Below, piece by piece: positions 4,746 to 28,465 of a stretch of DNA of 28,465 bases. How positions within the stretch are numbered: position 1 is the first letter of the stretch; every line of letters begins with the position of its first letter. The notes under the pieces are model-generated. The model was not told the DNA's origin, did no database searches, and was given only the letters and a program-made list of their open reading frames with translations. Location of the stretch: positions 1 to 28,465 of the forward strand of contig CAYFVI010000086.1 of the NCBI GenBank assembly GCA_964346525.1, given 5' to 3'. Origin of the DNA: an uncultured Dehalococcoidaceae bacterium (GTDB lineage Bacteria; Chloroflexota; Dehalococcoidia; Dehalococcoidales; RBG-16-60-22). A program made the position numbers and the translations under genes.

Positions 4746-5636
4746 ATGTTTGGATTGCTCAGAAAAAAGCGCAGCGCAAAAGAGGCAGAAAGAAGGCCAC
4801 CAGAGGAAAGCCACAAGGTTGGGGGCAGAGGAAACGAGGAGCGGATGGGCAGTCTGGTTAACGACCTTGTAGGAGAGCACAGCGCTTCGGCTTCGATTTC
4901 AGTCCGCTCTATTATCAAGGCGGCAATTGGCAGCGCGGAGCAGATTGTTGATAGTATGAAAATGCGAGCGGCGGAAGAAGCTCAGCAAGAAGCGGCGAAG
5001 GTCATTGCTGAGGCCAGGAAAGAAGCGGAAAAGATAAGGGGAGAAGCACCGGTTCAGGGGGCGGCCGCGGAAAATATCATCTCCGCGGTGGGGGAAATTG
5101 CCAAAGAAGAGATAGAGGCGCCGGAACAGGCTCTGGAAGAGATGGTTGTCCCGGAAGAGAAAGAGAGGGCCCAACTTCAAGAGGAAGCAGCAGAACAGGC
5201 GGCGGAAGAAATAGCACCGCAAGATGAAGAGCCCGTGACTCTGGAGCTTGGCGCCGAAGAGGAGGAGCCTGAAAAAGCCGCTCCGAAGGAAGAAGACACG
5301 GAAAGGGAAAAACGGGAAATGTGGGTGACCCAGGAGGAAAGTCAGTCGCTGTACACCGGGGAGGTTGAGTTAATAGTCGCCGTACCGGTTGAACCGACGA
5401 TGGTATCCAAGCTTTACAGTTACCTGCAGACAACGTCCGAAGTAAAATTTGTGCGCACGGTGGGTTCATGGAATAAGGGAAGCGCTATCACCATAGCACT
5501 GGATAAACCAATCCCCTTGATTTCTGTGCTCGCTTCCAAGTTGCCTGAAGCGAATGTGGTGCCTGAGCGAACCGAAGGAAGCGGTCACGTGAAGGGGGCA
5601 AGGCGGAGAATTAACATTTCACTGAAGAATAAATAA
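4746..5636 (+). CDS. hypothetical acidic protein: DivIVA/FliH-like coiled coil, Glu-rich linker, small C-terminal alpha/beta domain
   Basis: AAEEAQQEAAKVIAEARKEAEKIR heptad-like segment, E-rich low-complexity middle, ordered C-terminus (TGEVELIVAVPV...VKFVRTVGSWNKGSAITIALDKP). First gene after the promoter. Confidence 0.65.
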   Translation: MFGLLRKKRSAKEAERRPPEESHKVGGRGNEERMGSLVNDLVGEHSASASISVRSIIKAAIGSAEQIVDSMKMRAAEEAQQEAAKVIAEARKEAEKIRGEAPVQGAAAENIISAVGEIAKEEIEAPEQALEEMVVPEEKERAQLQEEAAEQAAEEIAPQDEEPVTLELGAEEEEPEKAAPKEEDTEREKREMWVTQEESQSLYTGEVELIVAVPVEPTMVSKLYSYLQTTSEVKFVRTVGSWNKGSAITIALDKPIPLISVLASKLPEANVVPERTEGSGHVKGARRRINISLKNK

Positions 5637-5667
5637 TCCACTCTGAGCTAGTCCGGGGGGAAGAGAA

Positions 5668-7371
5668 ATGGAAGCACCGGCAAAAAACGTAAAGAGAGAC
5701 GTTCTCAATATTCTGATGGAGGCCGGGATAATCAACGATGAGCAATTACAGCGCGTCCATGACCTGCAGCAGAAGACTGGAGATAGACTGGAACACATTC
5801 TACTTCAGCAACGGATGGTCACCCAGCAGCAATTAGCCTTTTTTACCAGCCTGCATCTGGGAATACCGTTCATCAATCTGAGAAGAGAAGGCGTCAAGAC
5901 CGATGCCGTGAAGCTGATCCCGGAAGCGGTAGCCAGAAAATATGGCATTATACCGGTTGAAGTAAAGGACAGCACCATTGTGATCGCTATGGAGGACCCC
6001 AAGGATATCGAGGCGATTGAGGATTTGGCCGCGATAACCATGAGAACAATTGAGCCGGTGATCAGCACGGCGCAGGACATCCAGGAAATGATTGATCTCA
6101 ATTACCGCATCGGTGGTGAGCTGGAGGAACAGCTGAGCCAGATTCCCACCCGTTATCGCAGCAGCGGGGGATTGAGAGAGGCCCGGGTATCGCCGGAAAC
6201 GATTGCGCAGGCGCCGGTGGTGCGCGCCATTGACCTGCTGATAAAACAGGCGGTGCGGGACCGCGCCTCCGATGTGCATATCGAGCCGCAGGAAGACAGG
6301 GTGCGAGTTCGCTACCGGATTGACGGAATTCTGAATGAGGTGATGGGCCTGCCGTTAAGTGTGCACGCGCCATTGCTTTCCCGTGTGAAAATCATGGCCG
6401 GGTTGAACATCGCCGAGCGCCGTCGCGCGCAGGATGGCCAGATAACCTTTGACATGGGTGACCGTGAGGTGGATATCCGCGTGGCCACTTCCAACACGAT
6501 ATACGGTGAAATGGCGGTGCTGAGAATACTGGACAAGGCCTTCGCCTTTATGCCTTTGCCGGAAATCGGTTTCATGCCGGAGATGCTGGAAAAATACCTG
6601 AGGATGCTGAAAACACCTTTTGGCATGATACTTATTAGCGGTCCCACCGGTTCCGGTAAAACCACCACGCAGTACGCTTCGGTAAATACGCTTGACTCCG
6701 TGGGGCGCAAGATAATCACCATTGAAGACCCGGTGGAATACCATTTCTCCAATATCAATCAGATGCAGGTCAATCCGGCGGCAGCCGTCACCTTTGCCTC
6801 CGGACTGAGGGCCACGATGCGGCTTGACCCGGATGTGATACTGGTCGGTGAGATACGTGATACGGAGACAGCGCAGATAGCCACCCAGGCCGCCCTTACC
6901 GGACATCTGGTGTTGTCTTCAGTTCACGCCAATGATACCGTAAGCACCATCATTCGAATGATTGACCTCGGTATCGAGCCCTTCCTCATTTCCTCGGCGG
7001 TGATAGGGGTTGTTGCCCAGAGAATGGTGCGCCGCGTCTGCCCGTACTGTTCACGCCCTGTCGAAGTAGCCGCGGAGGAACGGGAAGCTTATGAGGAGGA
7101 AATGGACGAAAAACGCTCTGAATTCATTATCGGTGCCGGGTGCAATTTCTGTGCTGGCACTGGCTATCTGGGACGGACCGGCATCTTTGAGGTGTTATTG
7201 GTCAGTGAGGCCATCCGCAGGATAATTGTAAAAGGCGCCGATTCCGATGAAATACGCTTGCAAGCCAAACAGGAAGGCATGGTCTCCCTGTGGCATGACG
7301 GTATGTTGAAGGTCAAAGAGGGAATTACCACTCCCTATGAGGTTCTGCGTAACGTATTTTCAATTTCTTAA
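5668..7371 (+). CDS. pilB: type IV pilus assembly ATPase PilB (GspE/PulE family) with degenerate MshEN N-terminus
   Basis: RASDVHIEP, Walker A GPTGSGKTT, Asp box TIEDPVE, Walker B DPDVILVGEIRD, His box TGHLVLSSVHAN, tetracysteine CPYC...CNFC...GYLGRTG. Confidence 0.92.
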   Translation: MEAPAKNVKRDVLNILMEAGIINDEQLQRVHDLQQKTGDRLEHILLQQRMVTQQQLAFFTSLHLGIPFINLRREGVKTDAVKLIPEAVARKYGIIPVEVKDSTIVIAMEDPKDIEAIEDLAAITMRTIEPVISTAQDIQEMIDLNYRIGGELEEQLSQIPTRYRSSGGLREARVSPETIAQAPVVRAIDLLIKQAVRDRASDVHIEPQEDRVRVRYRIDGILNEVMGLPLSVHAPLLSRVKIMAGLNIAERRRAQDGQITFDMGDREVDIRVATSNTIYGEMAVLRILDKAFAFMPLPEIGFMPEMLEKYLRMLKTPFGMILISGPTGSGKTTTQYASVNTLDSVGRKIITIEDPVEYHFSNINQMQVNPAAAVTFASGLRATMRLDPDVILVGEIRDTETAQIATQAALTGHLVLSSVHANDTVSTIIRMIDLGIEPFLISSAVIGVVAQRMVRRVCPYCSRPVEVAAEEREAYEEEMDEKRSEFIIGAGCNFCAGTGYLGRTGIFEVLLVSEAIRRIIVKGADSDEIRLQAKQEGMVSLWHDGMLKVKEGITTPYEVLRNVFSIS

Positions 7372-7377
7372 GGGGGG

Positions 7378-8631
7378 ATGATGGCGGGAACGGCTCAGGC
7401 GCCTAATAAACTGAAAGATATCACCTACCGCTATACGGCTTCCACCAGACAGGGCAATCTGGTAAAGGGCAATATCAAGGCCCCCAGCGAGATTGCCGCC
7501 GAACGTTTGCTCATCAATAAAGGATATATCCCAGAGCATGTTGAAGTCGCGCCGTCTATGTTCAGTCTGGAAGAAGCGTTCCCCACCCTCTTCCGTTTAA
7601 AACCCCGTGATATTATCGTTTTCTCCCGTCAGTTGGCTACACTGCTGCGCTCTGGCATCTCGCTGTTGCCGGCACTGGAAATCCTGCAGGGGCAGGCTGC
7701 CAGCAGCCGCGCTTTTAGAAGCGTTCTGGCCAGTATCGTGAATGATATTCGATCCGGAGGTTCGTTCTCGCAGGCGGTGAAAAAAAATCCCAAAGCATTT
7801 AGCGAGATTTACTGCCGCACCATCGCCGTTGGCGAGGAGACGGGCAACCTGGATATGACGCTCAACCAGATGGCTGACTTCATGGAGAAGCATCAGGCGA
7901 TGACCCAGAAGGTGAAAAAAGCGATGACCTACCCGATGATAGTCATGGGTGTTGGCGTCGTCGTGGTCTTTATGTTGATAACCGTGGTTATGCCCCAGTT
8001 GCTGGGCATGTTTTCCGCGCTGAATGTAGAGTTACCCTTGCCGACCAAGATTCTCATTGCCATTACCGAGATATTTCAAAATTACACCCTTTATATTGTC
8101 GTGGGTGGGGCATTATTGCTTGCTGTATTTCTCTGGATGACAAAACAACCCTCTGGGAAGCGGGTGCTGGACCGTCTACGGCTCAGCATGCCGATTATCG
8201 GTCCGCCGGCTCTTATGGCAGAGTTGGGGCGCTTTGCCAGAACGCTCTCGGTGATGATCGGTGCCGGACTTAAACTGCAAGAAACGATGGAGTTGCTGCC
8301 ACAGGCGACGGCCAATATGCTTTTCCGTGATTCTCTGCACAAAGTCAACGAGCGGTTGCTACTCGGCGAGGGGTTGTCCGAGCCGATGAGCCGGGTCAGC
8401 CTGTTTCCGCCGCTGCTTGTGCAGATGGTTGCGGTGGGCGAAGAGAGCAACACCCTGGACTTCACCATGGGGGTGGTAGCTGATTTCTATGAAACGGCCG
8501 CGGAAGAAAAAACCGCTGCCATGGTGGGCCTGATAGGCCCCGTCAGTACCATCGGCATCGCCCTGCTGGTCGGCTTCATTGCCGTATCTATTCTTATGCC
8601 GATGTATACCCTCACCGGCGCCTTCGGTTAA
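7378..8631 (+). CDS. pilC: type IV pilus platform protein PilC (GspF family), copy 1
   Basis: FSRQLATLLRSG, VGEETGNLD, AMTYP, TM segments, VAVGEESNTLD; directly follows pilB. Start at 7378 or 7381. Confidence 0.92.
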   Translation: MMAGTAQAPNKLKDITYRYTASTRQGNLVKGNIKAPSEIAAERLLINKGYIPEHVEVAPSMFSLEEAFPTLFRLKPRDIIVFSRQLATLLRSGISLLPALEILQGQAASSRAFRSVLASIVNDIRSGGSFSQAVKKNPKAFSEIYCRTIAVGEETGNLDMTLNQMADFMEKHQAMTQKVKKAMTYPMIVMGVGVVVVFMLITVVMPQLLGMFSALNVELPLPTKILIAITEIFQNYTLYIVVGGALLLAVFLWMTKQPSGKRVLDRLRLSMPIIGPPALMAELGRFARTLSVMIGAGLKLQETMELLPQATANMLFRDSLHKVNERLLLGEGLSEPMSRVSLFPPLLVQMVAVGEESNTLDFTMGVVADFYETAAEEKTAAMVGLIGPVSTIGIALLVGFIAVSILMPMYTLTGAFG

Positions 8632-8671
8632 TTGACACGGGTCACTTAACCATTTATTTGAATAATTACCT

Positions 8672-8700
8672 TTGGTGGGGCAGGGGAAAGAGTTTATAAT
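8672..8700 (+). promoter_or_regulatory. possible internal sigma70-type promoter (TTGGTG-N17-TATAAT)
   Basis: Perfect -10 and partial -35 at 17 nt, in the 116-nt gap after pilC. Confidence 0.45.
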
Positions 8701-8747
8701 AATCTTAAGCCTACGGTACGCTTGCGCTAGACGAGAGGAGTAACATA

Positions 8748-9143
8748 TTGAGCCAGGAGGCGATGCCCAAGCCGGAAGGAGAAGAAACAAAACAGGAAGC
8801 GGTTCGAAGGGCGAAAGAGAGAGCCAGAATCGCAAGGTGGGACCTCGATGTGGCCGTATTTCTCTTTGTGGTACTGATTGTGGTGATAATCCTGCTGTTT
8901 CAAAATATCAGCGTTGGCATAGTGGCGCCGGTAGCCATCTTTGGCCTGATAATGGTCTGGATAACAGGCTGGAGGCGCGGTAAGCATTTGTTTCGTAGCT
9001 TTTACGCTGAAGAGCTTTTCAGGTTGGAAAGAGAGATAAAGGAGACCGAAGAGAAAGAGAATAGGGAGAAGAAAGCGGCAAAGCCCATTGATGATACCAT
9101 TGAGGAAGCGGTGCAGCGGGCGCTGCGCGAAAGGTGGAAATAA
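8748..9143 (+). CDS. hypothetical membrane protein (2 TM, charged tails)
   Basis: Hydrophobic stretches VAVFLFVVLIVVIILLF and IVAPVAIFGLIMVWITGW. TTG start at 8748 after GAGGAG, or ATG at 8763. Confidence 0.7.
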   Translation: MSQEAMPKPEGEETKQEAVRRAKERARIARWDLDVAVFLFVVLIVVIILLFQNISVGIVAPVAIFGLIMVWITGWRRGKHLFRSFYAEELFRLEREIKETEEKENREKKAAKPIDDTIEEAVQRALRERWK

Positions 9144-9217
9144 TCAAGCGCGGGGTTCAGCCTCTATTTCGCTGGGGGATATATGCCAAGCCGCGGCAGA
9201 ACATGGAGTAGAGTAGA

Positions 9218-10168
9218 ATGCAGGAGTTACTGGCCAGAATACGTCGCATGGGCTTTATGATAGTGCTCGGGGTCTGCATCATCATTTATGTTGGTCTCGG
9301 CTTTGTTTACATGCAACAGGGGCCAAAGCAGAAGAGCCTCGAAGAGCAAATAAGGAAGACCATTCTGGTGGTAAGCAAGCCTCTACCGAGCATGAAAGAA
9401 TTGCAGGCCAAATACGACGCGGTGAATAAAGCCCTGGAGCCGATGGAAACGCCTCAAGCGCTGGAGGTGATTGTCGGCATTGCGGAGAAAAGCGGCATAG
9501 ATGTCGATCCACAAAACGACAAGCTACGCATCGGTGCCCCGGGCAGACCCGAAAAAAGGAAAATGGCTGAAGGCACCTATAATGTTTTGTCTTTCGGTGA
9601 CATCATGGCGCAGGGTGATTATGAGGCCGTGATGAATTTTATATCTGATCTTGATGCCGGCAATACGCTGGAAACTATGATTCTCAGAAGGGTAAATCTT
9701 GGATGGGTACAGGTGGCACTTTCGGAAGGAGAGGTGATACGGAGAGCCGAATACCGCGCGGTAATACAGGCAGTGGCTGATATGATGGCGGATAATAATC
9801 TCGCTGAGATTCCCAACGCGGTAAATTATGATGGCGGGCTGGCGGTGAATGAAATGGCCGTCTTTCCCGATACTATCACTACCGCAAAGGAAAAGGGATA
9901 CACTGGCGTGGAGACCCCATCAGATGGCTATGTACTCTATGAGCACGACCGGATCGCGACTGATAATACCGCCGATTATCAGACGATGATATACCTTGAT
10001 AATCCCACTACGGAATATTATTACATCTGTGAGCTGGATGGCACCGTGCGGCAGTTTGATGGACCAGATTTGGCAACAGCGACGGAGTATTTCGGCAGCG
10101 AGGAGCTTATCTATGAGGCCGTTGCCAGGTTATCCATTGACCTGTATTCCAAACTGCCCAAAGGATAG
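9218..10168 (+). CDS. PilO/GspM-like bitopic protein with an inserted pilin head domain (aa ~170-280)
   Basis: N-terminal TM plus coiled coil and PilO-type motif QGDYEAVMNFISDLD...ILRRVNL...ARLSIDLY that aligns with the PilO at 25053-25616. The insert aligns with the major pilins at 11893-12886. Confidence 0.8.
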   Translation: MQELLARIRRMGFMIVLGVCIIIYVGLGFVYMQQGPKQKSLEEQIRKTILVVSKPLPSMKELQAKYDAVNKALEPMETPQALEVIVGIAEKSGIDVDPQNDKLRIGAPGRPEKRKMAEGTYNVLSFGDIMAQGDYEAVMNFISDLDAGNTLETMILRRVNLGWVQVALSEGEVIRRAEYRAVIQAVADMMADNNLAEIPNAVNYDGGLAVNEMAVFPDTITTAKEKGYTGVETPSDGYVLYEHDRIATDNTADYQTMIYLDNPTTEYYYICELDGTVRQFDGPDLATATEYFGSEELIYEAVARLSIDLYSKLPKG

Positions 10169-10197
10169 TGGGCCTGGCGGCTATATATTAAAGGTGG

Positions 10198-11739
10198 TTG
10201 ATTGTGGCGAAACAGAACGAAAAAGCTAAATCTCAAAGCATCGTGAATCTCGACTTGGGCACTGCCGTTAAAAAGCTCCTGAAGGCATTGGAGAGAGCAC
10301 TGGCGCGGTTTGCCGCCGGCAAGGTTGTTACCCTGGACATCAGCCAGACCGGCCTCCGGCTCATGGAGACGCGTGGCGGTACGGTTAAAAGCTGGGCTGA
10401 TGTCGCCTTTGAACCAGAAGAAATGGGGCAAATAGCCAAAGGGGGAGAGACCACCCTGGGTGCCAAAGTCAAGCAACTGATGGATTCAAGCGGCATCAAA
10501 GCAAAGAGTGTAATCGCCAGCATAAGCGGTATGTATACCATAAGCCGCCTCATACCCGTGTCCAACTTGCCGGCGGCGCCAACACTTGAGGAATCGGTTA
10601 ACGAGATTGCCCAGGAAATAATGCCCGTTCCCACCGAAGGTCTCTACTTCTTCTGGCAGACCGTGGGTACTGATGAGGGAGAACGGCAGGTATTTACTCT
10701 CGGTGTACCCAGAAACGTCATGGATAACAGTATAAAATCTCTGAAAAGTGTGGGTATCAACCCACAGATTGTCGAGCTCAAGACGATGGCGCTGGCCAGA
10801 GTCATCAATAAAGAGCAGGCTCTGATTCTGAATATTGAGCCTGCCAGCTTTGACATTATTATGGCGGTCAAAGGCATCCCCAGAATCATGCATTCGCTGG
10901 CCTGGCGATGGGATAGCATGAACATCGGGGATGCGGCCGAATATCTGGCCACAAACCTTGAGATGACGGTCGATTTCTATAACAGCCACCATCTTGATGA
11001 GCCTTTTGATATGACCAATCCGCTTTACATTACCGGGCAAATGTCCGTGGAACCGGAATTGATGGAGAAACTGCGGGCCAGACTGGGGTTTGCTGTTGAA
11101 GAACTAACACCGCCGCTGGATTGCCCGGCTTTCCTTCCGACATCCCAGTACGCGGTGAACATAGGGCTTGCCATGCGCAAGGAGATGTCCTTACGCAATA
11201 GAGATGGTGAAGTTGGATTCTTCCCGCTCGATGTAAATCTTCTTCCCCCGGCCTATCGGCCATGGCGCCCGACCGCCAAGCAGATATATTCAACCGGCAT
11301 CCTTATATCCGCAATTGCTCTCATCTTCCCATTATTCCAGATCGCCGACGAGACCATGAGCCAGACGACCATTTTAGAGCGAAAGTATGACATTCTCAAT
11401 AACCAGTTGCTGCTGAAGAAAACGGAAATAGAAAAGCGTGAGCCGTTGCAGAGAGCTATCGCTGAGTACGAATCTATAGTTGCCAGGGAAGGGAGTTTCA
11501 GCGAGGATATCAGTGCGATTATAAATGAGGCGGAGAAACTGGATGTTGAGGTGAGTTCCATAATCCATGACAAAAAGAGCATAACCGTTTCCTGCGTAGC
11601 CAAAGATTACCTTTCCTTTCGGGAATACCTGACGGCGCTTGGGGAAAGCGGTCGTTTTACCACCCCCATCCCTCCCCCGGAGGGCTACCCGTATACTACG
11701 AGCGGTACCGTTAAACTTGAAGCCAAAATCAGCCAGTAG
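10198..11739 (+). CDS. PilM-PilN fusion protein, copy 1
   Basis: PilM actin-like fold (TLDISQTGLRLME, K.VIASISG, LKTMALAR), then the PilN N-terminal motif DVNLLP, a TM, a coiled coil and a PilN-like C-terminal domain. Start may be GTG at 10204. Confidence 0.8.
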   Translation: MIVAKQNEKAKSQSIVNLDLGTAVKKLLKALERALARFAAGKVVTLDISQTGLRLMETRGGTVKSWADVAFEPEEMGQIAKGGETTLGAKVKQLMDSSGIKAKSVIASISGMYTISRLIPVSNLPAAPTLEESVNEIAQEIMPVPTEGLYFFWQTVGTDEGERQVFTLGVPRNVMDNSIKSLKSVGINPQIVELKTMALARVINKEQALILNIEPASFDIIMAVKGIPRIMHSLAWRWDSMNIGDAAEYLATNLEMTVDFYNSHHLDEPFDMTNPLYITGQMSVEPELMEKLRARLGFAVEELTPPLDCPAFLPTSQYAVNIGLAMRKEMSLRNRDGEVGFFPLDVNLLPPAYRPWRPTAKQIYSTGILISAIALIFPLFQIADETMSQTTILERKYDILNNQLLLKKTEIEKREPLQRAIAEYESIVAREGSFSEDISAIINEAEKLDVEVSSIIHDKKSITVSCVAKDYLSFREYLTALGESGRFTTPIPPPEGYPYTTSGTVKLEAKISQ

Positions 11740-11822
11740 TGAATTATCCACGCTGGCGTGACTTATCGATTGAAGGAATTATCTACCTTTAATAACCAGA
11801 TGTGGCACCTTTTGAATGGCCT

Positions 11823-11892: not shown

Positions 11893-12363
11893 TTATTCAT
11901 AGCCGGTGGTTTCCTGGGTTACCGTTCCTTCTGCGTCAACGGTATAGGTGCCCTTGGTCATTTCCGTGGCCACGTAGTTGACGGTGGTGTTGACGCTGTT
12001 GTCGGCGGTGATATCGTGCTGGTAGAGTATGAAGCCGTCCTTGTCACCGGCCTGGTAGGCAGTTCCATCCGGGTCATTGAGCTTGTCAACGGTGACGGCT
12101 GAAGTGTCATCGGGGAACAGGCTCATGTTACCGGTAGCTACGGTGACCGGGTTGGGCAGGGTACTCAACTGGTTATCAACCATCATGGCGACGACCGCTG
12201 ACTGGACGTTGGCAAACTCGGTATCCGCGGCTTCCGACTCACCTCTCCCGATGAACCTTCCCACGTTGGGGATGACCACCGCTGCCAGCACACCGAGGAT
12301 GGCTACCACGATGAGCAGCTCGATCAGTGTGAACCCCTTCTCGCCTCTCTTCGGCAATCTCAT
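11893..12363 (-). CDS. pilA: major type IV pilin, copy 2 (146 aa mature, no Cys)
   Basis: Class III signal MRLPKRGEKG|FTLIELLIVVAILGVLAAVVIP with G-1, F1, E5 and P22; AGGAGG RBS. Confidence 0.93.
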   Translation of the reverse strand: MRLPKRGEKGFTLIELLIVVAILGVLAAVVIPNVGRFIGRGESEAADTEFANVQSAVVAMMVDNQLSTLPNPVTVATGNMSLFPDDTSAVTVDKLNDPDGTAYQAGDKDGFILYQHDITADNSVNTTVNYVATEMTKGTYTVDAEGTVTQETTGYE

Positions 12364-12415: not shown

Positions 12416-12886
12416 TTACTCGTAGCCGGTGGTTTCCTGGGTTACCGTGCCTAGGGCGTCAACGGTATAGGTACCCTTGGTCATTTCCGTAGCCACGTAG
12501 TTGACGGTGGTGTTGACGCTGTTGTCGGCGTTGATATCGTGCTGGTAAAGTATGAAGCCATTCTTGTCACCGGCCTGGTAGGCAGTTCCATCCGGGTCAT
12601 TGAGCTTGTCAACAGTGACGGCTGAAGTGGAATCGGGGAACAGGCTCATGTTACCGGTAGCTACGGTGACCGGGTTGGGCAGGGTTTCCAGCCCGTTATC
12701 CGTCATCATGGCGACGACCGCTGACTGGATGTTGGCAAACTCGGTATCTGCGGCTTCCGATTCACCTCTCCCGATGAACCTTCCCACGTTGGGGATGACC
12801 ACCGCTGCCAGCACGCCGAGGATGGCCACCACGATGAGCAGCTCAATCAGTGTGAACCCCTTCTCGCCTCTCTTCGGCAATCTCAT
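12416..12886 (-). CDS. pilA: major type IV pilin, copy 1
   Basis: Same class III signal peptide as copy 2; 8 aa differences. Confidence 0.93.
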   Translation of the reverse strand: MRLPKRGEKGFTLIELLIVVAILGVLAAVVIPNVGRFIGRGESEAADTEFANIQSAVVAMMTDNGLETLPNPVTVATGNMSLFPDSTSAVTVDKLNDPDGTAYQAGDKNGFILYQHDINADNSVNTTVNYVATEMTKGTYTVDALGTVTQETTGYE

Positions 12887-13065: not shown

Positions 13066-13737
13066 TTATTTCCGGCTATGGGGAACAAGGCCTCGTTTCA
13101 CGGCGTAAGCGGCCGCCTGGCTGCGATTTGCCAGGTGGAGTTTGTCCATTATATTGCGCAGGTGTGTTTTCACCGTGTTCTCCGAGATGAACAGAGAGTC
13201 AGCGATTTCTCTATTGGTAGCACCCTGGGCCACCAGTCGCAGCACTTCATCCTCGCGGTGGCTCAGATGGGCCTCTTCGGCTGTGGTATCTTTATCCCTG
13301 GCATCTGTGCCCGATTCCTTGAATTCGGTCAGCAGTTTGGTTGCCATAATGGGGGAAAGGATGACGCCGCCCTGGGCTATGTGATAAATGGCCTGAACCA
13401 GCTCCTCCGGCTCCGTATTCTTTAAAATATAACCGGTAGCCCCGAACTTGATGGCCGCGAAAAGGTCAGCTTCATTTTCGGAAACGGTCAGAACTAGGAT
13501 ATTCACCTGCGGCATCTTAGCTTGCAGTGCCTGTGTGGCTTCCAGCCCGCTGCATTGTGGCATGTTAAGGTCCATCAGGATGACATCAGGCTTCAGTTTT
13601 TCCGCCTTTTCTATTGCCTCCAGACCGTTGGCCGCCTCTCCCACAACGCTTATATTTGCCTGATTTGTCAGTACGGTGCTGATGCCGCGTCGGAAGAGAG
13701 AATGGTCATCCACAATAAGAACCCTGACCGCTTCCAT
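13066..13737 (-). CDS. NarL/LuxR-family response regulator (canonical receiver)
   Basis: VLIVDDHSLFRRG, PDVILMDLNMP, VLTVS, GYILK; HTH LSHREDEVLRLVAQGATNREIA...SENTVKTHLRNIMDKL. Confidence 0.93.
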   Translation of the reverse strand: MEAVRVLIVDDHSLFRRGISTVLTNQANISVVGEAANGLEAIEKAEKLKPDVILMDLNMPQCSGLEATQALQAKMPQVNILVLTVSENEADLFAAIKFGATGYILKNTEPEELVQAIYHIAQGGVILSPIMATKLLTEFKESGTDARDKDTTAEEAHLSHREDEVLRLVAQGATNREIADSLFISENTVKTHLRNIMDKLHLANRSQAAAYAVKRGLVPHSRK

Positions 13738-15718: not shown

Positions 15719-15737
15719 TGGCAACCTTCTTTTATAA

Positions 15738-20689: not shown

Positions 20690-21019
20690 TTAGGCGCTTT
20701 TACCCTTGTTGCCGGAGCCGCCAAGCGTCTGCAGTTTCTGGCTAAGCTCCTGAAAGGTTTTGTCCTGGGGCTGTTTGCCCAGTTCTAGTCCGTAACTGAG
20801 GAAAAATTCCAGGAAATTGCGCAGCAGTTCCTTCATGCCGGCAGCAAACTGGTTGAATTCCTCTTTGTCAACATAAGCATTGCTGGTAGCGGGTTCTTTC
20901 AATCGGCTATCAATCAGGAAGTCCAGGAATTCCGAGTAGCTCATATCGCCGCGGTTTTCGTCAATCCTCCTGGCGATGTCGGCATCAATAATAAGCATCC
21001 TTTTATCTGCCACGCTCAT
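20690..21019 (-). CDS. hypothetical protein, N-terminal ribbon-helix-helix-like segment
   Basis: MLIIDADIARRIDENRGDMSYSEFLDFLIDSRL fits the RHH strand-helix-G.S.SE-helix pattern; AAGGAG RBS. Confidence 0.6.
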   Translation of the reverse strand: MSVADKRMLIIDADIARRIDENRGDMSYSEFLDFLIDSRLKEPATSNAYVDKEEFNQFAAGMKELLRNFLEFFLSYGLELGKQPQDKTFQELSQKLQTLGGSGNKGKSA

Positions 21020-21102: not shown

Positions 21103-21384
21103 TTACAAGCTGTAATTTTCATCCAGCCCGAGCATTTCCTTGATGTTGTTAATTAGCTGCAGTAGTTTCAGGCCGCTTTCCGTTATCTGGTAGGTCACGG
21201 AGGGATTGCCCAACTTCATCTGGTCGATATAGCCGTTGCCCACAAGATAACCCAGATACTTCTGTATCTGGCTATAGCTCATATTGGCGCTGTACATGAT
21301 TTCCGTCTTGCCCGCGCCATTCTCGCCCACTTTGAGCATATCGGCAATGATTTCAATGTCAGAGCGCCGCCGATTTACCCTCAC
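21103..21384 (-). CDS. small winged helix-turn-helix transcriptional regulator (archaeal COG3432/HTH_45-like)
   Basis: RRRSDIEIIADML...KTEIMYSANMSYSQIQKYLGYLVGNGYI...YQITESGLKLL matches the family pattern as recalled. GTG start after GGGAGG. Confidence 0.8.
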   Translation of the reverse strand: MRVNRRRSDIEIIADMLKVGENGAGKTEIMYSANMSYSQIQKYLGYLVGNGYIDQMKLGNPSVTYQITESGLKLLQLINNIKEMLGLDENYSL

Positions 21385-21552: not shown

Positions 21553-22362
21553 TTAAAGAGAAAACATTCCCAGGTACCAGTTGAGGATATCGTTTCCCCA
21601 GAGCAGGGTTAGCAGGGCGGCTATGGCCAGGAAAGAGCCGAAGGGGAGGGGCTCTTGCCTGTTCTTCAGCTTCAATGACAGCAGGACTATGCCCACCAGG
21701 CCGCCGAGAATTGCCCCCAGTGTCAGCGAAAGAAGCACCAGCCTGGGGCCAGTTGCCAGCCCGATCAGCGCCATCAGTTTCACATCGCCAAACCCGATTG
21801 CCTCACGCTTATAGATGGCCAGGGTTATGAAGTAGGCTAGCAGAAGGAAGATAAAGCCCAGAGCTCCCCCCATCAGCCCGCTGACAAGGCCCGGCCACGG
21901 CCAGTCCAGATTCAGCTCAATCAGTCCCGGCGGGGGTTTAAAGACGGAAATGACCAGCGCCACCGCCATTGCCGGATAGGTGATTTTATTCAGTATAAGC
22001 TGGTGTTCCAGGTCAATGATGCCGATGACCAGAAACAGGCTGCCGTAGAAAGCAATAATTACGAACTGGACGCTCAATCCAAAATACCAGTAGCTCAGGG
22101 CAAAGAGCAATCCCGTGCCCAGTTCCACCCAGAAGGGTCTCTGAGGAATGGACGCCCCGCAATAGCGACAGCGGCGGCACAGCCATAAGTAGCTGAAGAG
22201 TGGCACCAGGTCTCCGGGTGACAGCCGGTGCTGGCAGGAATCACAGTGTGACGGCGGGCGCAGTATCGACTTGCCTGCGGGCAGGCGGTCGATGCATACA
22301 TTTAAGAAACTGCCAACAGCCGTGCCGAACGCGGCAAATATAATGATAAGCGCGATATCCAT
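21553..22362 (-). CDS. pilD: prepilin peptidase / N-methyltransferase
   Basis: GSFLNVCIDRLP, PPSHCDSC...CRRCRYC zinc site, IIDLEHQLI and GFGDVKL catalytic aspartates, LPFGSFL. Confidence 0.95.
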   Translation of the reverse strand: MDIALIIIFAAFGTAVGSFLNVCIDRLPAGKSILRPPSHCDSCQHRLSPGDLVPLFSYLWLCRRCRYCGASIPQRPFWVELGTGLLFALSYWYFGLSVQFVIIAFYGSLFLVIGIIDLEHQLILNKITYPAMAVALVISVFKPPPGLIELNLDWPWPGLVSGLMGGALGFIFLLLAYFITLAIYKREAIGFGDVKLMALIGLATGPRLVLLSLTLGAILGGLVGIVLLSLKLKNRQEPLPFGSFLAIAALLTLLWGNDILNWYLGMFSL

Positions 22363-22413
22363 TTCGCCGTATTTTGAGCGTTTTTTCTCCGTTCGTCAAG
22401 GTCAGCAAAAGAG

Positions 22414-22446
22414 TTGTCCCCTCCAGGGAGAGTCAGGAGGGGACAA
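22414..22446 (-). terminator. putative intrinsic terminator/attenuator between pilT and pilD
   Basis: 11-bp arms TTGTCCCCTCC / GGAGGGGACAA followed on the minus strand by CTCTTTT. Confidence 0.55.
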
Positions 22447-22519
22447 GGTGAGGAGGAGGTTAGGGCTATAAGCAAGGCCTTATGCCAGGATTGCTATTCA
22501 GCCTATGCTGCCTTTAAGG

Positions 22520-23590
22520 TCATTCTACCTCAACTGTTCCCATAAGCTTGGTCACCTCTTCGCGGTCGTTGCAGCAGGAAAACAGGCTGTCGCCGCTGAT
22601 GACGCCGCTGCGGTAGAGATTTAGCAGAGCGTGGTCGAGAAGCATCATTCCCGAACGTGTCTGCGTCATGATGGCATTGGGCAGTTGATGTATTTTACCC
22701 TCACGAATAATGTTCTTGACCGCCGGGCTGGCTATCATAACCTCAACGGCGGCTGTTCTCCCCTCACCATCAATTCTGGGGACCAGCGACTGACACAAGA
22801 TACCGAGGAGCAGGGACGCCAGCCGTGTCTGGGCAAGGTGTCGCTCATGGGTGGGGAAAAGGTCGACGATTCGCTCCACAGCCTGTGCGGCGCTGGTGGC
22901 ATGCCCGGTGGTCAGGACCAGGTGGCCGGTCTCGGCGACGATAAGTACCGCGGCCGCGGTTTCCAGGTCTCTCATCTCACCCACCAGAATGACATCAGGG
23001 TCCTGCCGCAGTATATGTTTCAGCGCATCAGCAAAGGATAAGGTGTCATTGCCCAGTTCTCGCTGGGTGATGGTACACTTTTTGTTTGAATACAGGTATT
23101 CAATCGGGTCCTCAAGGGTAATAACGCGTTTGTTTTCCATTGAGTTCAGGTAATTTATCATTGCCGCCAGCGTGGTGGATTTGCCGCTGCCGCTGGGTCC
23201 GCTGACCACCACCAGTCCCCTCGGTTTCATGATAAGGTCCTTGCATATAGTGGGCAATCCCAATTCGTCAAGCGCGGGAATGACCAGCGGTATAAGCCTG
23301 ATGGTAAGCGTTAGTGTACCACGCTGTTTGGCTGCGTTACAGCGCAGCCGCCCAACATCGGGCAGCGTGTAGCCAAAGTCAAGCTCAAGGCTGCGGTGAA
23401 AATCAGCCCTTTCTTTTTCCGAGCTAATCTGCTGGAAAGCCTCGGCAACGTCATCCTGTGTTAGGGGTGGCATATCAGCCTCTGGTCTAAGCAGGCCATT
23501 GATGCGGAAAATGGGGGCATCGCCGGTCACTAGGTGCAGGTCAGAGGCGCCCTTTTCTGCGGCTAATCGAATCAAAGCAAATATATCCAT
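22520..23590 (-). CDS. pilT: type IV pilus retraction ATPase PilT
   Basis: GASDLHL, GRLRCNA, GPSGSGKSTT, TLEDPIE, ILRQDPDVILVGEMRD, AETGHLV, AVKNIIREGK (AIRNLIRE-like). Start trimmed to MDIFALI at 23590. Confidence 0.93.
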   Translation of the reverse strand: MDIFALIRLAAEKGASDLHLVTGDAPIFRINGLLRPEADMPPLTQDDVAEAFQQISSEKERADFHRSLELDFGYTLPDVGRLRCNAAKQRGTLTLTIRLIPLVIPALDELGLPTICKDLIMKPRGLVVVSGPSGSGKSTTLAAMINYLNSMENKRVITLEDPIEYLYSNKKCTITQRELGNDTLSFADALKHILRQDPDVILVGEMRDLETAAAVLIVAETGHLVLTTGHATSAAQAVERIVDLFPTHERHLAQTRLASLLLGILCQSLVPRIDGEGRTAAVEVMIASPAVKNIIREGKIHQLPNAIMTQTRSGMMLLDHALLNLYRSGVISGDSLFSCCNDREEVTKLMGTVEVE

Positions 23591-23594
23591 GCGC

Positions 23595-25049
23595 TCACTC
23601 TCCTGAGTCGAGAACGACAGCAAAATTGGTGGTGCCCCCAAACACGTTCTTGAGCTCGGTAATGGTAATGCTTGAGAACCGCTCGCTGGCCTCCAGTTCT
23701 CTTAGGTATGAAAGGAGGTCATCTTCACTTTGGGCCTGTCCTTTGAGGGCCAGGGTATTGCCGTTCTGGCTGATAATGGTCAGGCCCACCGTTTCCGGCA
23801 AACTGTTGACGGTTACCTCAAGATTACGGTTTACTTCCTCGCTCTGCGTTTCCAGAACTGACAAGGCGAGGGCAAAGTTGCCGCCGGAGGTCTCGGCGTT
23901 GTTTATCTTCTGCTGGAGTTCAGCAATGACATCTGTATATTTTTGCTTCTGGACAATCCTTTGTTGGAGAAGTTGATTGGTAGTATTTAGCTGGCCCCTT
24001 GTCTCGGCAATATCCGCGGAGGTATTCTGAACTATCAGCGCTAGGAATATCAGCAGGCTGGCGGCAAGGACTGCGCTGGGCACGGCCAGGATTCTATTCA
24101 GGGAAATGGGCTCGGGCTGGTATACGGTGGGGACTATATTAAGTTCGCTTACCGAGAGCCCAGAACCGTTTGTCGATGCAGCCTGCTTGAGAACCAGTCC
24201 CATGTTTGCCATGTAACGGCTGGTATCAAGGCCATCAGGCTTCTCAAACGGCGGCGGCAGAGGCAAAACCGGCCGGCGTAGCCCGTCCGAAAGCATCTGG
24301 CACTGTTTATCTTCATCGGCCAGTTCGCCGGAAGCCCAGATGGGCAATGTAGCGGCAAGAGGGGTTTCCGGATTGTTGGTATTGTAGAATTCAATAGTCC
24401 GGCTAATATCGTCTTTTATCATCTTGGTTTTTTCCTGCCAGGATGATACCTTGTTGGGGAAAGGCACGGTGCGGACAGGCTGGGGGATACCGCCGGTCAT
24501 AACCACGATGTCAAATTCGGTCGGCTGAACATCGACGATAATAGCCATCGTGTCCTTTACCATTCTGGCCAGGAGCATGGGTTTCAGGTCCATCAGGTCT
24601 GACTTGAGGCCGGCAAGATGCAGCGTATTGAACAAAGCGTCGGCGGCGGTACGGGGAATCGCTACCAGGTAGACCTGTAGTTTTCCCTCCGGAGCGGGGA
24701 TGGACTGCCACGAAATGTAAAGCTGGTCGGGAGAGACCGGCAGCACCCGCTTTGCCTCCCGCCTTACCGCCTCCTCCAGCATGTCCCTGGGAAGCTGAGG
24801 CAGGAGGAGAGGGCGGGTAAGACAGTGCAGCCCGCTGACACCGAGGGTAACCTTATTGGCATCTATCTTGCGCATCTTGAGAGTCTGCTTGAGCTTGGCG
24901 GCAACCTCTTCCGGTTTCAGCACCACGGAGTTTTTCACCATGCCGGGCTCAAGAGGCACGTCCGCCCATTTCTTGATCCGTTGCCCGCTGGTTACCAGGA
25001 GCCGGATGCTGGTGTCATCGATGTATAAAGTGACTACTTTCTGTGCCAT
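23595..25049 (-). CDS. PilM-PilN fusion protein, copy 2
   Basis: KVVTLYIDDTSIRLL...KKWADVPLEP aligns with copy 1; ELNIVP linker, TM, coiled coil, and PilN-type LALKGQAQSEDDLLSYLRELEASERFSSI. Confidence 0.82.
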   Translation of the reverse strand: MAQKVVTLYIDDTSIRLLVTSGQRIKKWADVPLEPGMVKNSVVLKPEEVAAKLKQTLKMRKIDANKVTLGVSGLHCLTRPLLLPQLPRDMLEEAVRREAKRVLPVSPDQLYISWQSIPAPEGKLQVYLVAIPRTAADALFNTLHLAGLKSDLMDLKPMLLARMVKDTMAIIVDVQPTEFDIVVMTGGIPQPVRTVPFPNKVSSWQEKTKMIKDDISRTIEFYNTNNPETPLAATLPIWASGELADEDKQCQMLSDGLRRPVLPLPPPFEKPDGLDTSRYMANMGLVLKQAASTNGSGLSVSELNIVPTVYQPEPISLNRILAVPSAVLAASLLIFLALIVQNTSADIAETRGQLNTTNQLLQQRIVQKQKYTDVIAELQQKINNAETSGGNFALALSVLETQSEEVNRNLEVTVNSLPETVGLTIISQNGNTLALKGQAQSEDDLLSYLRELEASERFSSITITELKNVFGGTTNFAVVLDSGE

Positions 25050-25052
25050 TGC

Positions 25053-25616
25053 TTATCTTTCCTCGTAGGTATAAATCACCATCTGAATGCTGGCAGAAGA
25101 TTTTTTATCACCGGCGGGGTATGGTATGCCCATGTCAACTGACCTGACCACACCAGTAGCCAAGTTATCATTTAGCTGGGTGATGAAGCCCACCAGATTA
25201 CTGACTTCGCCTTCAATATTAGCGGTTAGCGATAACGCTCGGCAGGGTACGCTTTTCAGCTCCTCATCGACCATACCCGAAGATTTGACCTCGGTTATGT
25301 TAACGCTATTGCTCTCGGCCGTGTTGAATAATATATCGGTGATGATAATGCTGTTCATCGGTTCTGAGAGCGTTTCCCGGGCAGTTTCAGACTGCGAGAT
25401 TGTTTCGTCTAGCTGCTGCTCGAGTTCTGCCTGCTGGTTCGCGAGATCCTCAGGCTGAATTGAACTCAGCTGCGACGCGGCCAGGGCAAGCTCTTCTCTC
25501 AGTTGTTTCTTCACGCCGGACTGCTGAGAGTAGACCATCCAGAGGCTCACCAGGGCGATCAAAAAGATACCGATGCCGATAAACAGCCAGCTTTTCTTAC
25601 TCAGTTTCATCTTCAT
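25053..25616 (-). CDS. PilO/GspM-like protein, copy 2 (no insert)
   Basis: N-terminal TM, coiled coil, IEGEVSNLVGFITQLN...VRSVDM...ASIQMVIY; lies between the minor pilins and pilMN. Confidence 0.8.
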   Translation of the reverse strand: MKMKLSKKSWLFIGIGIFLIALVSLWMVYSQQSGVKKQLREELALAASQLSSIQPEDLANQQAELEQQLDETISQSETARETLSEPMNSIIITDILFNTAESNSVNITEVKSSGMVDEELKSVPCRALSLTANIEGEVSNLVGFITQLNDNLATGVVRSVDMGIPYPAGDKKSSASIQMVIYTYEER

Positions 25617-25632
25617 TCCTTAAAGATACAGG

Positions 25633-26487
25633 CTAGTTATATATCTTCCACAATGAAATATATGTATTCTCACCTTGTATCATTGCCTTACTAACAATTT
25701 TAGCGGTGGTCCTGTTAGTCTCCGGATTAATTGCGGTCGCCGTAATTTCATAAGCGGTACTGTTGATTTCACCCACGGCGCCGATATCCTCCCGACGAGC
25801 CAGTATCCAGGCGTAGTAGCCCTCTTGTTCCCCTGAACCTGCCATGTAAAAGCTCTGGGTTCGCTGTGTTTGGTTCTCAGATACCTGGGGATATGGTGAT
25901 GACATTACCCAGTTCACAAGATAAGCGCCCTCCGGGTCCAAGGTCGCATCCGGCTCGTCAGTGGAGAGGTTTTCCGTGAAATTGGCCGCTGACCCGGTCT
26001 GATAACTGTAGTTGATGGGAAGCCTGGCGCCAACTTCCTCTAGATGTATGGTTGGTTCTCCGCTGCTCGGTTGCCAGGTGACCGTAATCGTGTATTTGTA
26101 AGCATCAGCCCCTTCGTCCCAAGTGATATTGCTGCTCACGTGAAGGTATACGATGTGGCCGCCCATCTCGAGGAGTTCACCAAGATATATGGTGTGGGTC
26201 CCCTTGTCTACGGTCTGTATATTTACCTGCATATCGTTGATATTCTCGGAAAGCTGGGTGGGGGGTGGCTGGCCGTTGGCCAGCGACCATAAGATATTTT
26301 CCACGCCGGCATCGGCGGCGTAGGTGCCCTTCACGCCGGTCTGAAGCATATTGCTGGTTTTGGCGCTGGTAAAATTCAGGCTCAAGCTCGGCGCGATGGT
26401 CAGCCCGCCGATGATAAGCAGGGCCAGCGTTATGGGTAAAGCCTGTCCCGATTCTCCCTTTAGTATTTGTCGCCAAATCCTACGCAT
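25633..26487 (-). CDS. minor pilin, PilX/GspK-like (no E5)
   Basis: MRRIWRQILKGESG|QALPITLALLIIGGL, A.YAADAGVENIL. Start trimmed to 26487 after AGAGGA. Confidence 0.8.
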   Translation of the reverse strand: MRRIWRQILKGESGQALPITLALLIIGGLTIAPSLSLNFTSAKTSNMLQTGVKGTYAADAGVENILWSLANGQPPPTQLSENINDMQVNIQTVDKGTHTIYLGELLEMGGHIVYLHVSSNITWDEGADAYKYTITVTWQPSSGEPTIHLEEVGARLPINYSYQTGSAANFTENLSTDEPDATLDPEGAYLVNWVMSSPYPQVSENQTQRTQSFYMAGSGEQEGYYAWILARREDIGAVGEINSTAYEITATAINPETNRTTAKIVSKAMIQGENTYISLWKIYN

Positions 26488-26500
26488 TGTCACACATCCT

Positions 26501-27034
26501 CTAATAAACATTTGGTCGGTTATTGATGCGGTATTCCCTGGTTTCCATGGCACTCTCAACGAGGGAGGTCAGCTGCAGGGTCAGCACCGGTGCCTGGTAG
26601 CTGGCCTTGGTGGTATCATCCGGGTCCGCGGGGGCGTAATAGATATGGGTGGCAATAAGCGTCTGTTCATTGGCGCCGGCGCTGCTCCAGTGAGTCCGTT
26701 TCAGCTTGCCGGTATCGCCGGATAAATCGGCGAAGGAATAATTTGCTGTGTGATATATCTTTTCATCCAGTTCATTCCATTCCGACCACGTGAAGACGAG
26801 GAAATCCGGTGGTGTCAGGTTATCGGTGCTCACGCTCTGTGCCATTCTGGCGTCACGGCTGATCCAGTATCCGGCGGTCTGCACCTGGCGCACCGCGTTC
26901 ATATGGGTATTGTTGGTTTCGGTGCCCTTCATAATCTGGAAGATGGCGATGGAGGCGGCGCCGCTCACCAGCACGATAATGGTGGTGGCGATAATTAATT
27001 CCAGCAGGGTGTACCCTTTTTCGCCGTTTCTCAT
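26501..27034 (-). CDS. minor pilin, PilW/GspJ-like
   Basis: MRNGEKG|YTLLELIIA, AGYWISRDARMA, LKR; ATGA-coupled to the upstream gene. Confidence 0.82.
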   Translation of the reverse strand: MRNGEKGYTLLELIIATTIIVLVSGAASIAIFQIMKGTETNNTHMNAVRQVQTAGYWISRDARMAQSVSTDNLTPPDFLVFTWSEWNELDEKIYHTANYSFADLSGDTGKLKRTHWSSAGANEQTLIATHIYYAPADPDDTTKASYQAPVLTLQLTSLVESAMETREYRINNRPNVY

Positions 27035-27435
27035 CGGTCTACCTTATATCCTTCCAGGTTAAAGATGTCTTTGCCGGAGCGCTGGATGGTAATGGTGATT
27101 TTCTGGATGCCGTCATCCGGGGTATGGACTGGCTCGGCCAGCACGGTGGCGGAATACTGTGAATAATCCTTGCCCGCGGGAAAGGGAGCGGTGGAATAGG
27201 AGGTAGCGTTATATGAATAGTTGGCGTTTTTCACCCATTCCATCTGGCTTTCCGCCAGGCTCTCGGCGGTGGAGTGCTCGTCGGTGATGAAGACGGATTT
27301 GGAAGCCGTGGTCAAGCCGTTGAGGAAGGAAACGGAGACCGCGCCGAGGATAGCCACGGCGATAACCGTTTCCATGAAGGTTATTCCTGACTCCCGCCGG
27401 ATAAAATTCTTGATTAATTGTTGGAACTTCATCAT
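27031..27435 (-). CDS. minor pilin, PilV/GspI-like
   Basis: RRESG|ITFMETVIAVAILG, AESLAESQMEWVK, IQKITITI. Confidence 0.82.
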   Translation of the reverse strand: MMKFQQLIKNFIRRESGITFMETVIAVAILGAVSVSFLNGLTTASKSVFITDEHSTAESLAESQMEWVKNANYSYNATSYSTAPFPAGKDYSQYSATVLAEPVHTPDDGIQKITITIQRSGKDIFNLEGYKVDR

Positions 27436-27445
27436 TGAATTCCCC

Positions 27446-28465
27446 TTAAAATCCCGTTCCGTACATGGAATACATGGCTGAGACCAGGGAAAAGGCGATG
27501 GCGGCGATGACCACGCCGATAATCAGCGTCATGGCCGGCTGGATAAGTGAGATGAGGGAGCGGGTCTTGTCCTCGGCCTCGGCGTCATAGCTGCGGGCGA
27601 CGGCGAGCAGGGTAGCGTCGAGGTTGCCTGTTTCCTCGCCGACCCTTACCATCTGCACCATCATGGGCAGGAAGAGGCTGTTCTTGGTCATGGGCCGTGA
27701 TATACCTTCGCCCTTTATCATGTCCTGCTGGACGGTGCTGAGGGCTTTGGATATTGCCTGGTTGCGGCTGCTCTGGACGAGGAGGGGGAGGATTTCGGTC
27801 AGGGGGAGGCCGGCGCGGAAGAGCATTGACATGCTGCGGCAGAGGCGGGAGAGCTCGCTCAGGTGGACGACACGCCCGAGCAGGGGCAGGCGCAGGACGA
27901 TTTTGTCCCATCGGGCGCGGCCGTTGGGCGTTCTGATGTAGAAATAAGACAGGCCCAGTACCGTCAGCATGCCCAGCATGAGGAAGGTCCAGTACTCTTT
28001 CAATTTTCCGGAGAAGTCGATAAGCAGCCTGGCGGAAGCGGGCAGCTCAACGCCCAGCGAGGTATACAGGCTGCCGAAGCTGGGCAGGACAAAGGTTACC
28101 AGAACGGCGATGACGCCTACGGTAACCACGAAGGTAATCACCGGGTACATCAGGGCGTTTTTGGTCTCCTTGGCGGTGTTGACCTCTTTTTCCATATAAT
28201 CGGCCACCTGTTTGAGCACGGTTTCGAGGTCACCGCTCTGCTCGCCAACGCCGATGAGCCGGCAGTAGATAGGGGAAAAGATGCTGGGGTGCTTGCTCAG
28301 GGCTTTGGACAGCTGGTGGCCGGAGCGCAGGTCTGAGATGACCTCGCCCAGGACCTTTTTCAGGGCGCGGCTGGTGGCCTGTTCCTGCAGCAGTTCCAGC
28401 GAGGCAACAATATCGATGCCGGACTCCAGCAGCATGGCCATCTGCCGGTACATCAGGATAATATC
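27446..28465 (-). CDS. pilC: type IV pilus platform protein PilC, copy 2 (5'-truncated by the window edge)
   Basis: Frame is open to the edge (DIILMYRQMAMLLESG), GEQSGDLE, ALMYP, VRVGEETGNLD, IQPAMT. Confidence 0.9.
   Translation of the reverse strand, partial: DIILMYRQMAMLLESGIDIVASLELLQEQATSRALKKVLGEVISDLRSGHQLSKALSKHPSIFSPIYCRLIGVGEQSGDLETVLKQVADYMEKEVNTAKETKNALMYPVITFVVTVGVIAVLVTFVLPSFGSLYTSLGVELPASARLLIDFSGKLKEYWTFLMLGMLTVLGLSYFYIRTPNGRARWDKIVLRLPLLGRVVHLSELSRLCRSMSMLFRAGLPLTEILPLLVQSSRNQAISKALSTVQQDMIKGEGISRPMTKNSLFLPMMVQMVRVGEETGNLDATLLAVARSYDAEAEDKTRSLISLIQPAMTLIIGVVIAAIAFSLVSAMYSMYGTGF

Follow-up and report, generated by a model that had tools for sequence, protein, structure and literature searches.

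We have analyzed a stretch of DNA of 28,465 nucleotides from an uncultured Dehalococcoidaceae bacterium, called the window below, which contains two sets of genes for the assembly of type IV pili. The window is the entire contig CAYFVI010000086.1 (C86) of a metagenome-assembled genome (MAG), GCA_964346525.1, which has 1.56 Mb in 310 contigs and is 81% complete, with 4% contamination. Close homologues of its proteins bear names that assign it to Dehalococcoidia/Dehalococcoidales. This MAG (G000) has been compared within its genus (15 genomes), with sister genera and with other families, all of them designated by G-numbers. Genes were assigned by Pfam and NCBIfam profile scans of the window proteins. 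They form two convergent arms: set 1 is found on the plus strand and set 2 on the minus strand. Two major pilins and seven other genes, mostly for signalling, lie between the arms, all of them on the minus strand, with the genes for PilD and PilT at the set 2 side.

Set 1 has six genes, in the order u296, PilB1, PilC1, u131, PilO1 and PilMN1. The first, u296 (4746–5636), codes for an acidic, low-complexity protein and is considered further below. PilB1 (5668–7371) is the extension ATPase of this set, with T2SSE (407 bits) and MshEN domains. PilC1 (7378–8631) is its platform protein and has two T2SSF domains (185 bits). A small protein with two transmembrane helices, u131 (8748–9143; hydrophobic amino acids 26–76), has no class III signal and is not a pilin; it is 68–72% conserved in G008 and G004. 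PilO1 (u316, 9218–10168) belongs to the PilO family and has an inserted domain similar to a pilin head. The set ends with PilMN1 (10198–11739), a PilM-PilN fusion (PilM_2, E 4.7e-5; TIGR01175 pilM, E 3.6e-11). There is no pilin gene inside this set, which also lacks minor pilins, PilT and PilD.

The order in set 2 is PilB2, PilC2, three pilin-like genes, PilO2, PilMN2, PilT and PilD. Its platform protein PilC2 (27446–28465, T2SSF 199 bits) is cut by the contig end. Directly after pilC2 comes u134 (27031–27435), with a pilin motif, RESG/ITFME, read from the sequence. It is followed by u177 (26501–27034), a minor pilin with the motif GEKG/YTLLE and an N_methyl match, and by u308 (25633–26559), a pilin-like protein without Glu5 (…KGESG/QALPI…), with a transmembrane segment at amino acids 37–63 and no Pfam or NCBIfam match. 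Judging from its motif, u308 is likely to be a tip-type minor pilin. PilO2 (u187, 25053–25616) has been assigned to PilO by a structure match. PilMN2 (23595–25049) is a second PilM-PilN fusion, in this case with both PilM_2 and PilN above cut-off. The retraction ATPase PilT (22520–23641) gives 419 bits with TIGR01420 pilT_fam (cut-off 319). Its probable start is a Met located 17 codons into the open reading frame (ORF), and the PilT of another contig, C7, aligns from residue 18. The prepilin peptidase PilD (21553–22362; A24_N_bact and Peptidase_A24) is the single Peptidase_A24 match in the whole genome.

The two major pilins are found between the arms. The candidate pilA1 (11893–12363) has the class III signal KG/FTLIE and an N_methyl match, and pilA2 (12416–12886) is a second copy in tandem, also with an N_methyl match. 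All the parts of a type IVa pilus in its monoderm form are thus present: class III pilins, PilD, PilB, PilC, PilM, PilN, PilO and PilT. The PilB and PilC proteins score below the equivalog cut-offs of NCBIfam (type_IV_pilB gives 548 bits for PilB1, cut-off 676), therefore these proteins are divergent members of their families. A genome-wide search gave no match to the secretin PilQ in this 81% complete genome. The original prediction, made from the sequence, had described most of this organization: two diverged pilC, two pilMN fusions and two pilO on convergent arms, all of which are found at the places given for them. It had assigned PilB and the pilin-bearing PilO to one set, and the minor pilins, PilT and PilD to the other, which is confirmed by the profile scans and by the match of u316 to the PilA head. 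It was also right in placing the major pilins, the regulatory and signalling genes and a GH3 gene between the arms, and in regarding the lack of pilQ as consistent with a monoderm.

A second full-length PilB is present in the genome. A genome-wide T2SSE search finds it on contig C3, whose last 119 bp match the last 119 bp of the window exactly, in reverse complement. This 119-bp stretch is unique to the C86/C3 pair, no other contig contains it. The end of C3 carries the start of a T2SSF gene, which corresponds to the first 63 codons of pilC2 (C3:4191–4498). The pilB2 gene (C3:2584–4119) codes for 511 amino acids, with T2SSE (404 bits) and MshEN domains, and lies 71 bp upstream of pilC2; it is preceded on C3 by housekeeping genes. 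When both contigs are joined, PilC2 is an open frame of 402 amino acids, which is 78–88% identical to the orthologues that follow PilB2 on unbroken contigs. Two genus-mates, G008 and G004, also have two full PilB/PilC/PilM/PilN/PilO sets. In both of them the locus is unbroken (G008:C10 and G004:C1): u296-PilB1-PilC1-u131-PilO1-PilMN1, then on the opposite strand two pilA genes, the signalling core and PilD-PilT-PilMN2-PilO2-pilin-like genes-PilC2-PilB2. The genes that flank the locus, for a peptidyl-prolyl isomerase (PPIase) and a homoserine dehydrogenase, are the same as well.

Both sets have diverged in all their components. The identity (BLASTP) is 53% between PilB1 and PilB2, 38% between PilC1 and PilC2 and only 27% between PilMN1 and PilMN2; PilA1 and PilA2 are 95% identical. 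Such a deep and parallel divergence of all components is expected of cognate sets which have evolved together. The Pfam PilM match of PilMN1 is weak, and this protein aligns to PilMN2 with E 2e-47 (amino acids 40–489), through the transmembrane region (a helix at amino acids 362–386 in PilMN1) and the PilN part.

Neither of the two PilO proteins, u187 and u316, matches Pfam PilO directly. The AF2 model of u187 (pLDDT 77) has its best PDB matches with PilO structures: 2rjz (E 2.6e-5), 5uvr and 3jc8_O. The families of u187 and u316 match each other only at the level of profiles, over their first ~160 residues, with a 98.3% probability in hhalign (E 1.9e-14), and Pfam PilO is matched by 4 of 42 plain relatives of the N-terminal part of u316, which have ~190 amino acids and no insert. 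Residues 178–279 of u316 are 34% identical to the PilA head (E 5e-11, BLASTP). In the AF2 model of u316 (pLDDT 88.7) this pilin-head-like domain (approximately amino acids 170–297) separates the two final strands of the PilO core. A Foldseek search with the whole model has PilO proteins as its best rows, with weak scores (E 6e-3), so the identification of PilO1 is based on profile and sequence evidence. There are more than 400 homologues of u316, all of them without names, some with 440–460 amino acids. The head found in PilO1 is shared by ordinary pilins and by proteins of a much larger size. This PilO-pilin chimera is the most unusual piece of the locus.

A tree of PilB proteins (IQ-TREE, LG+G4, 49 rows, rooted on PilT, row G018_C15 left out) gives a different history for each set. 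PilB2 belongs to an order-wide clade which tracks genus, family and order (support 100/100). The eight PilB1 rows from the genus form a clade with the PilB of G038, which belongs to another family (100/100). This clade is placed outside the PilB2 clade, and the enclosing node that excludes PilB1 has a support of 100/99. Therefore set 1 is either an old paralogue or the result of a transfer within the order, and its origin as a recent local duplication is ruled out. Set 2 represents the ancestral pilus cluster, passed on by vertical inheritance in this order of Dehalococcoidia.

Among the genomes searched, genes of the PilMN1 or PilB1 type are limited to 12–13 of the 15 genomes of the genus, to G024, from a sister genus, and to G038. 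All six set 1 genes are intact open frames, and their order is kept in at least 12 genus genomes. Set 1 orthologues in the genus are well conserved: 87–92% identity for PilB1 and about 80% for PilC1. Outside the genus each set occurs without the other. A set of the set 2 type is found alone in G033 and G027, complete or nearly complete genomes which belong to other families and have one PilB and one PilMN each. The order in G033 is PilB, PilC, pilin, PilO, PilMN, PilT, pilin and PilD, and a u134 homologue is found in the same position as in the window. In G038 we have found only one PilB, of the PilB1 type (74%), and only one PilC, of the PilC1 type (68%), with a u134-like pilin after PilC; a separate contig of this genome carries PilD, a kinase, the response regulator RR1 and a pilin of the PilA1 type.

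Two genus-mates lack set 1: G007 (L084, G007:C8) and G014 (L085, G014:C160). They could be taken as examples of set 2 alone, which we reject: both are deletion variants of a decaying locus, where the pilins have also been lost. G014 has lost the region between the middle of PilD and the PPIase gene; its set 2 ends in a truncated PilD which directly adjoins this gene, and PilC2 is split. In G007 the deletion extends from u305 as far as u296, of which a remnant is left. These deletions suggest a recurrent loss of piliation in the genus.

A third set is also present in this genome. Contig C7 (L012:3249–7573) contains a u177-like pilin, u305, PilO, PilMN and its own PilT, collinear with set 2; a PALP enzyme then takes the place of PilD. 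The C7 proteins are 44–89% identical to those of set 2. The matching PilB and PilC are not found in the assembly. The better genus-mates (G001, G004, G005, G006, G008 and G009) have three PilMN genes per genome, and G005, G006 and G009 have a third PilB which is 77–86% identical to PilB2. Since third sets recur in genus-mates, C7 probably represents a genuine third set, copied recently from set 2. Contamination is an unlikely origin for C7: the third set recurs in genus-mates with 2–5% contamination. The PilB proteins of the third set are nested in the genus-level part of the PilB2 clade, which indicates a recent duplication. A more distant PilB3-PilC3-PilM3 cluster is found instead in G008 (C4:161000–180999, L027), with identities of about 53%, 35% and 30% to both window sets. 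Genes of the PilB3 type with better preserved motifs for binding of cyclic di-GMP (c-di-GMP) are found in other genera of the family.

Which set makes use of the pilins is less evident. Full-length pilins of the PilA1 type adjoin PilMN1 in every set 1 contig that reaches that far. A strict association of these pilins with set 1 is weakened by G022, from a sister genus. One of its contigs (L081, G022:C58:1–9000) has GH3, GGDEF/HD-GYP and RR2 genes and one PilA1-type pilin beside the PPIase gene; it lacks set 1, RR1 and the PilS-like kinase. This contig represents either the state before the arrival of set 1 or the result of two deletions. In genomes with a single set (G033, G017), a u134-like gene follows PilC and a PilA-like pilin is found separately, near PilT/PilD. 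Because these single-set relatives carry both genes, it looks as if u134 was a minor pilin and the PilA-like protein the major pilin in the ancestral system. In view of these relatives and of the G022 pilin, we favour PilA1/PilA2 as putative major pilins shared by both sets, with u134, u177 and u308 as candidate minor pilins, which set 2 would supply. The genome also contains a ComEC gene (C66:3597–4430; Competence domain, 190 bits), so a role in DNA uptake is possible for one of the pilus sets.

PilB1 and PilB2 differ at their N-terminus. Besides the MshEN domain common to both, PilB1 has an MshE-type subdomain at amino acids 15–57, which matches the c-di-GMP motif profile NF053729 (42.7 bits, cut-off 38). 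This subdomain is absent from PilB2, which starts after this region, and from its orthologues throughout the order. The consensus consists of two tandem 24-residue motifs, RLGxx(L/V/I)(L/V/I)xxG(L/V/I)(L/V/I)xxxxLxxxLxxQ. In PilB1 they start at amino acids 11 and 40, with the canonical spacing of 29 residues, and each of them misses 3–4 of the 12 defined positions. The mismatches include the Arg and Gly of motif I and are the same across PilB1 orthologues, therefore ligand binding is uncertain. The c-di-GMP enzyme encoded in the middle of the locus has intact GGDEF, HDIGK, HHE and GYP motifs, and the presence of this enzyme there makes a control of set 1 by c-di-GMP a plausible possibility.

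We consider it rather probable that the locus codes for two separate, complete assembly machines of type IVa monoderm pili, and not for one machine with two platforms. Each PilB would act together with the PilC, PilMN and PilO of its own set. The two machines would both polymerize PilA1/PilA2, processed by the single PilD, and PilT would retract the products of both. PilB1 may respond to c-di-GMP that the neighbouring GGDEF/HD-GYP protein makes or breaks down, so that its control would differ from that of PilB2, and the pilin head inserted in PilO1 would tie set 1 to PilA-type pilins. Set 1 would be present through an ancient duplication or a transfer within the order. Several points weigh against this interpretation. 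Without minor pilins, PilT and PilD, set 1 is not autonomous and must borrow them in trans. The join of C86 and C3 is based on a graph overlap of 119 bp and on the gene order of the relatives, in a MAG which is 81% complete and has 4% contamination. The mismatches in the PilB1 motifs also count here. Finally, within the genus both sets have never been seen apart at this locus, except in the deletion variants G007 and G014, so they might be functionally interdependent there.

The original prediction had suggested one system, in which a single PilB would serve two platforms, whether combined into a heteromer or specialized for different tasks (extension as opposed to initiation/retraction). The tight linkage of the arms, kept in G000, G004 and G008, would agree with such an integrated machine, and so would the common pilins, regulators, PilD and PilT and the lack of minor pilins and PilT in set 1. 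Nevertheless, each arm has its own full-length PilB, all components have diverged deeply and in parallel, and a third set exists. It had been proposed to look for a second pilB to the right of the window, a result named beforehand as speaking against a single machine: pilB2 is found there, directly upstream of pilC2, as in G008 and G004. The distribution of the sets points in the same direction, with the set 2 type alone in other genera (G033 and G027) and only PilB1 and PilC1 types in G038. We regard the integrated machine as very unlikely. The alternative offered in the same prediction, two machines which share PilD, PilT and the pilins, is the one favoured by the evidence. The chance is even smaller, practically negligible, that set 1 is left over from an acquired pilus cluster which has lost its pilins, PilT and PilD, and is now decaying or without function. 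The genes missing from set 1 and the large deletions in G007 and G014 might suggest it, but the six genes are intact and conserved in order and sequence in at least 12 genus genomes, and intact homologues in the PilO1 family number more than 400.

A more serious competitor of the two machines with shared pilins, which we still consider unlikely, also has two machines, each one with its own filament and only PilD in common. Set 1 would produce a PilA1/PilA2 pilus, and set 2 a different fibre, made mainly of u134 together with u177 and u308; it could be a short retractile pilus or a DNA-uptake pilus which would work with ComEC. The distance from the end of set 1 to the pilA genes is only about 150 bp, PilO1 carries an insert homologous to the PilA head, pilC2 is directly followed by three pilin-like genes that belong to set 2, the genome has ComEC, and two distinct filaments are made by two sets in the TM7x bacterium described below. 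These arguments must be set against the single-set relatives, where u134 looks like a minor pilin next to a separate PilA-like one, and against G022, whose PilA1-type pilin is found beside a block of the set 2 side in the absence of set 1. A further suggestion, to which we give only a small chance, makes set 1 an auxiliary machine for extension, reduced in its parts and perhaps under the control of c-di-GMP, which would polymerize the same PilA1/PilA2 as set 2. The pilin head of PilO1, a copy anchored to the machine, would dock, template or prime PilA assembly and replace the priming complex of minor pilins. If true, this would be a new way of starting a type IV filament.

The closest precedent that we have found is Nanosynbacter lyticus TM7x, of the Saccharibacteria, also a single-membrane cell with a second set lacking PilT. 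Its locus 1 contains PilB1, PilC1, PilT, PilM1, PilN1, PilO1, PilD and pilins, and its locus 2 contains PilB2, PilC2, PilM2, PilN2 and PilO2, without PilT, with pilins encoded apart; deletion of PilB2 removes one of its two filament types (Grossman et al., PMC11623550). The differences are considerable. In our case the two sets face each other in a single locus of ~30 kb, around the pilins and a block of two-component and c-di-GMP genes; PilM and PilN are fused in both sets, PilO1 has an inserted pilin head, and there is a third set. Two filament types have been shown in TM7x; in the present system a second filament type is hypothetical.

To our knowledge, Clostridium perfringens has only one pilM-pilN-pilO set. 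In the portion of PMC6958937 which deals with its pilus genes, a pilB2-pilC2 pair, named as second copies, is described in a large pilin locus that starts with pilD, together with one pilT. The same portion reports that PilB2 binds c-di-GMP and that c-di-GMP raises surface PilA2 (PMC6958937). The pilM, pilN and pilO genes named there are single, while PilMN and PilO are also duplicated in our locus (PMC6958937). As far as described there, C. perfringens shares with the present locus a monoderm cell, a pilB2-pilC2 pair and one pilT. Another monoderm, Streptococcus sanguinis, has two tandem major pilins. Its type IVa pilus is made with class III pilins, PilD, PilB, PilC, PilM, PilN, PilO and PilT, without secretin or PilP (PMC6916266). 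It shares with our locus the defining parts of such monoderm systems and the lack of a secretin. Unlike the present case, S. sanguinis has a single machine, with separate PilM and PilN and no PilO-pilin chimera.

The nearest relatives are the single-set clusters of Dehalococcoidia (G033, G027 and G017). They are orthologous to set 2, with the same families in a similar order and PilB proteins which are 63–72% identical, but they do not have set 1, the PilO-pilin chimera or the PilA1-type head. A literature search with pilB found no paper on type IV pili in Dehalococcoidia. The layout found here is one of duplicated machines of a known kind. With a separate motor for each platform, it leaves intact the rule that a type IV pilus machine has a single platform. 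Several features are new: the face-to-face layout around shared pilins and regulators, the PilM-PilN fusions in both sets, a set 1 without minor pilins, PilT and PilD, and the PilO-pilin chimera. This uncultured genus of Dehalococcoidia has thus an expanded pilus repertoire, with two to three sets in genomes of ~1.9 Mb. Minor pilins, PilT and PilD belong to the cluster in single-set relatives; in our locus all three are found in the resident set and are missing from the extra set beside it. A conserved PilO with a pilin-head insert is also a concrete handle on the contact between the alignment protein and the pilin.

The seven genes between the pilins and PilD are mostly regulatory. The first of them is RR1 (13066–13737), a response regulator of the NarL/LuxR type (Response_reg and GerE) which adjoins the pilins; in G038 and G024 it is also found together with pilA and the kinase. 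The PilS-like kinase (13739–14908) is a histidine kinase with six transmembrane segments (HisKA_3, HATPase_c; 6TM_PilS 28.3 bits, cut-off 27). It is followed by a second regulator of the LuxR type, RR2 (15041–15868; GerE and Response_reg), whose ORF overlaps the next gene. The N-terminal 50 amino acids of RR2 are not conserved in relatives, and because of this conservation pattern its true start is probably near 15718. The RR2 receiver begins with IIIISQQ where RR1 has LIVDDH, and the acidic pair is missing. The multi-transmembrane GAF-GAF-GGDEF-HD-GYP protein (15738–18791) is predicted from its Pfam domains to carry out both synthesis and breakdown of c-di-GMP.

The gene for a GH3-family adenylating enzyme (18873–20540; GH3_M and GH3) is kept in place in G004, G005, G008, G009 and G022. 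The small protein u109 (20690–21019), with 109 amino acids and no Pfam match, is 80–92% conserved in genus-mates. At the other end of the window, u296 is preceded by a promoter-like site, TTGACA-17-TAATAT, at 4661–4689. It has a conserved C-terminal domain of ~100 amino acids, no Pfam family above cut-off and only a sub-threshold match to DUF4972. The look-alikes of its C-terminal domain in the Atlas are only Chloroflexota hypothetical proteins, with scores below 0.9. No complete tRNA has been detected in the window by ARAGORN. The C-terminal part of u296 is kept ahead of PilB1 in G008, G004, G024 and G038. The last of the seven genes, a winged-helix regulator (21103–21384; HTH_45, 82.5 bits), adjoins PilD also in G017.

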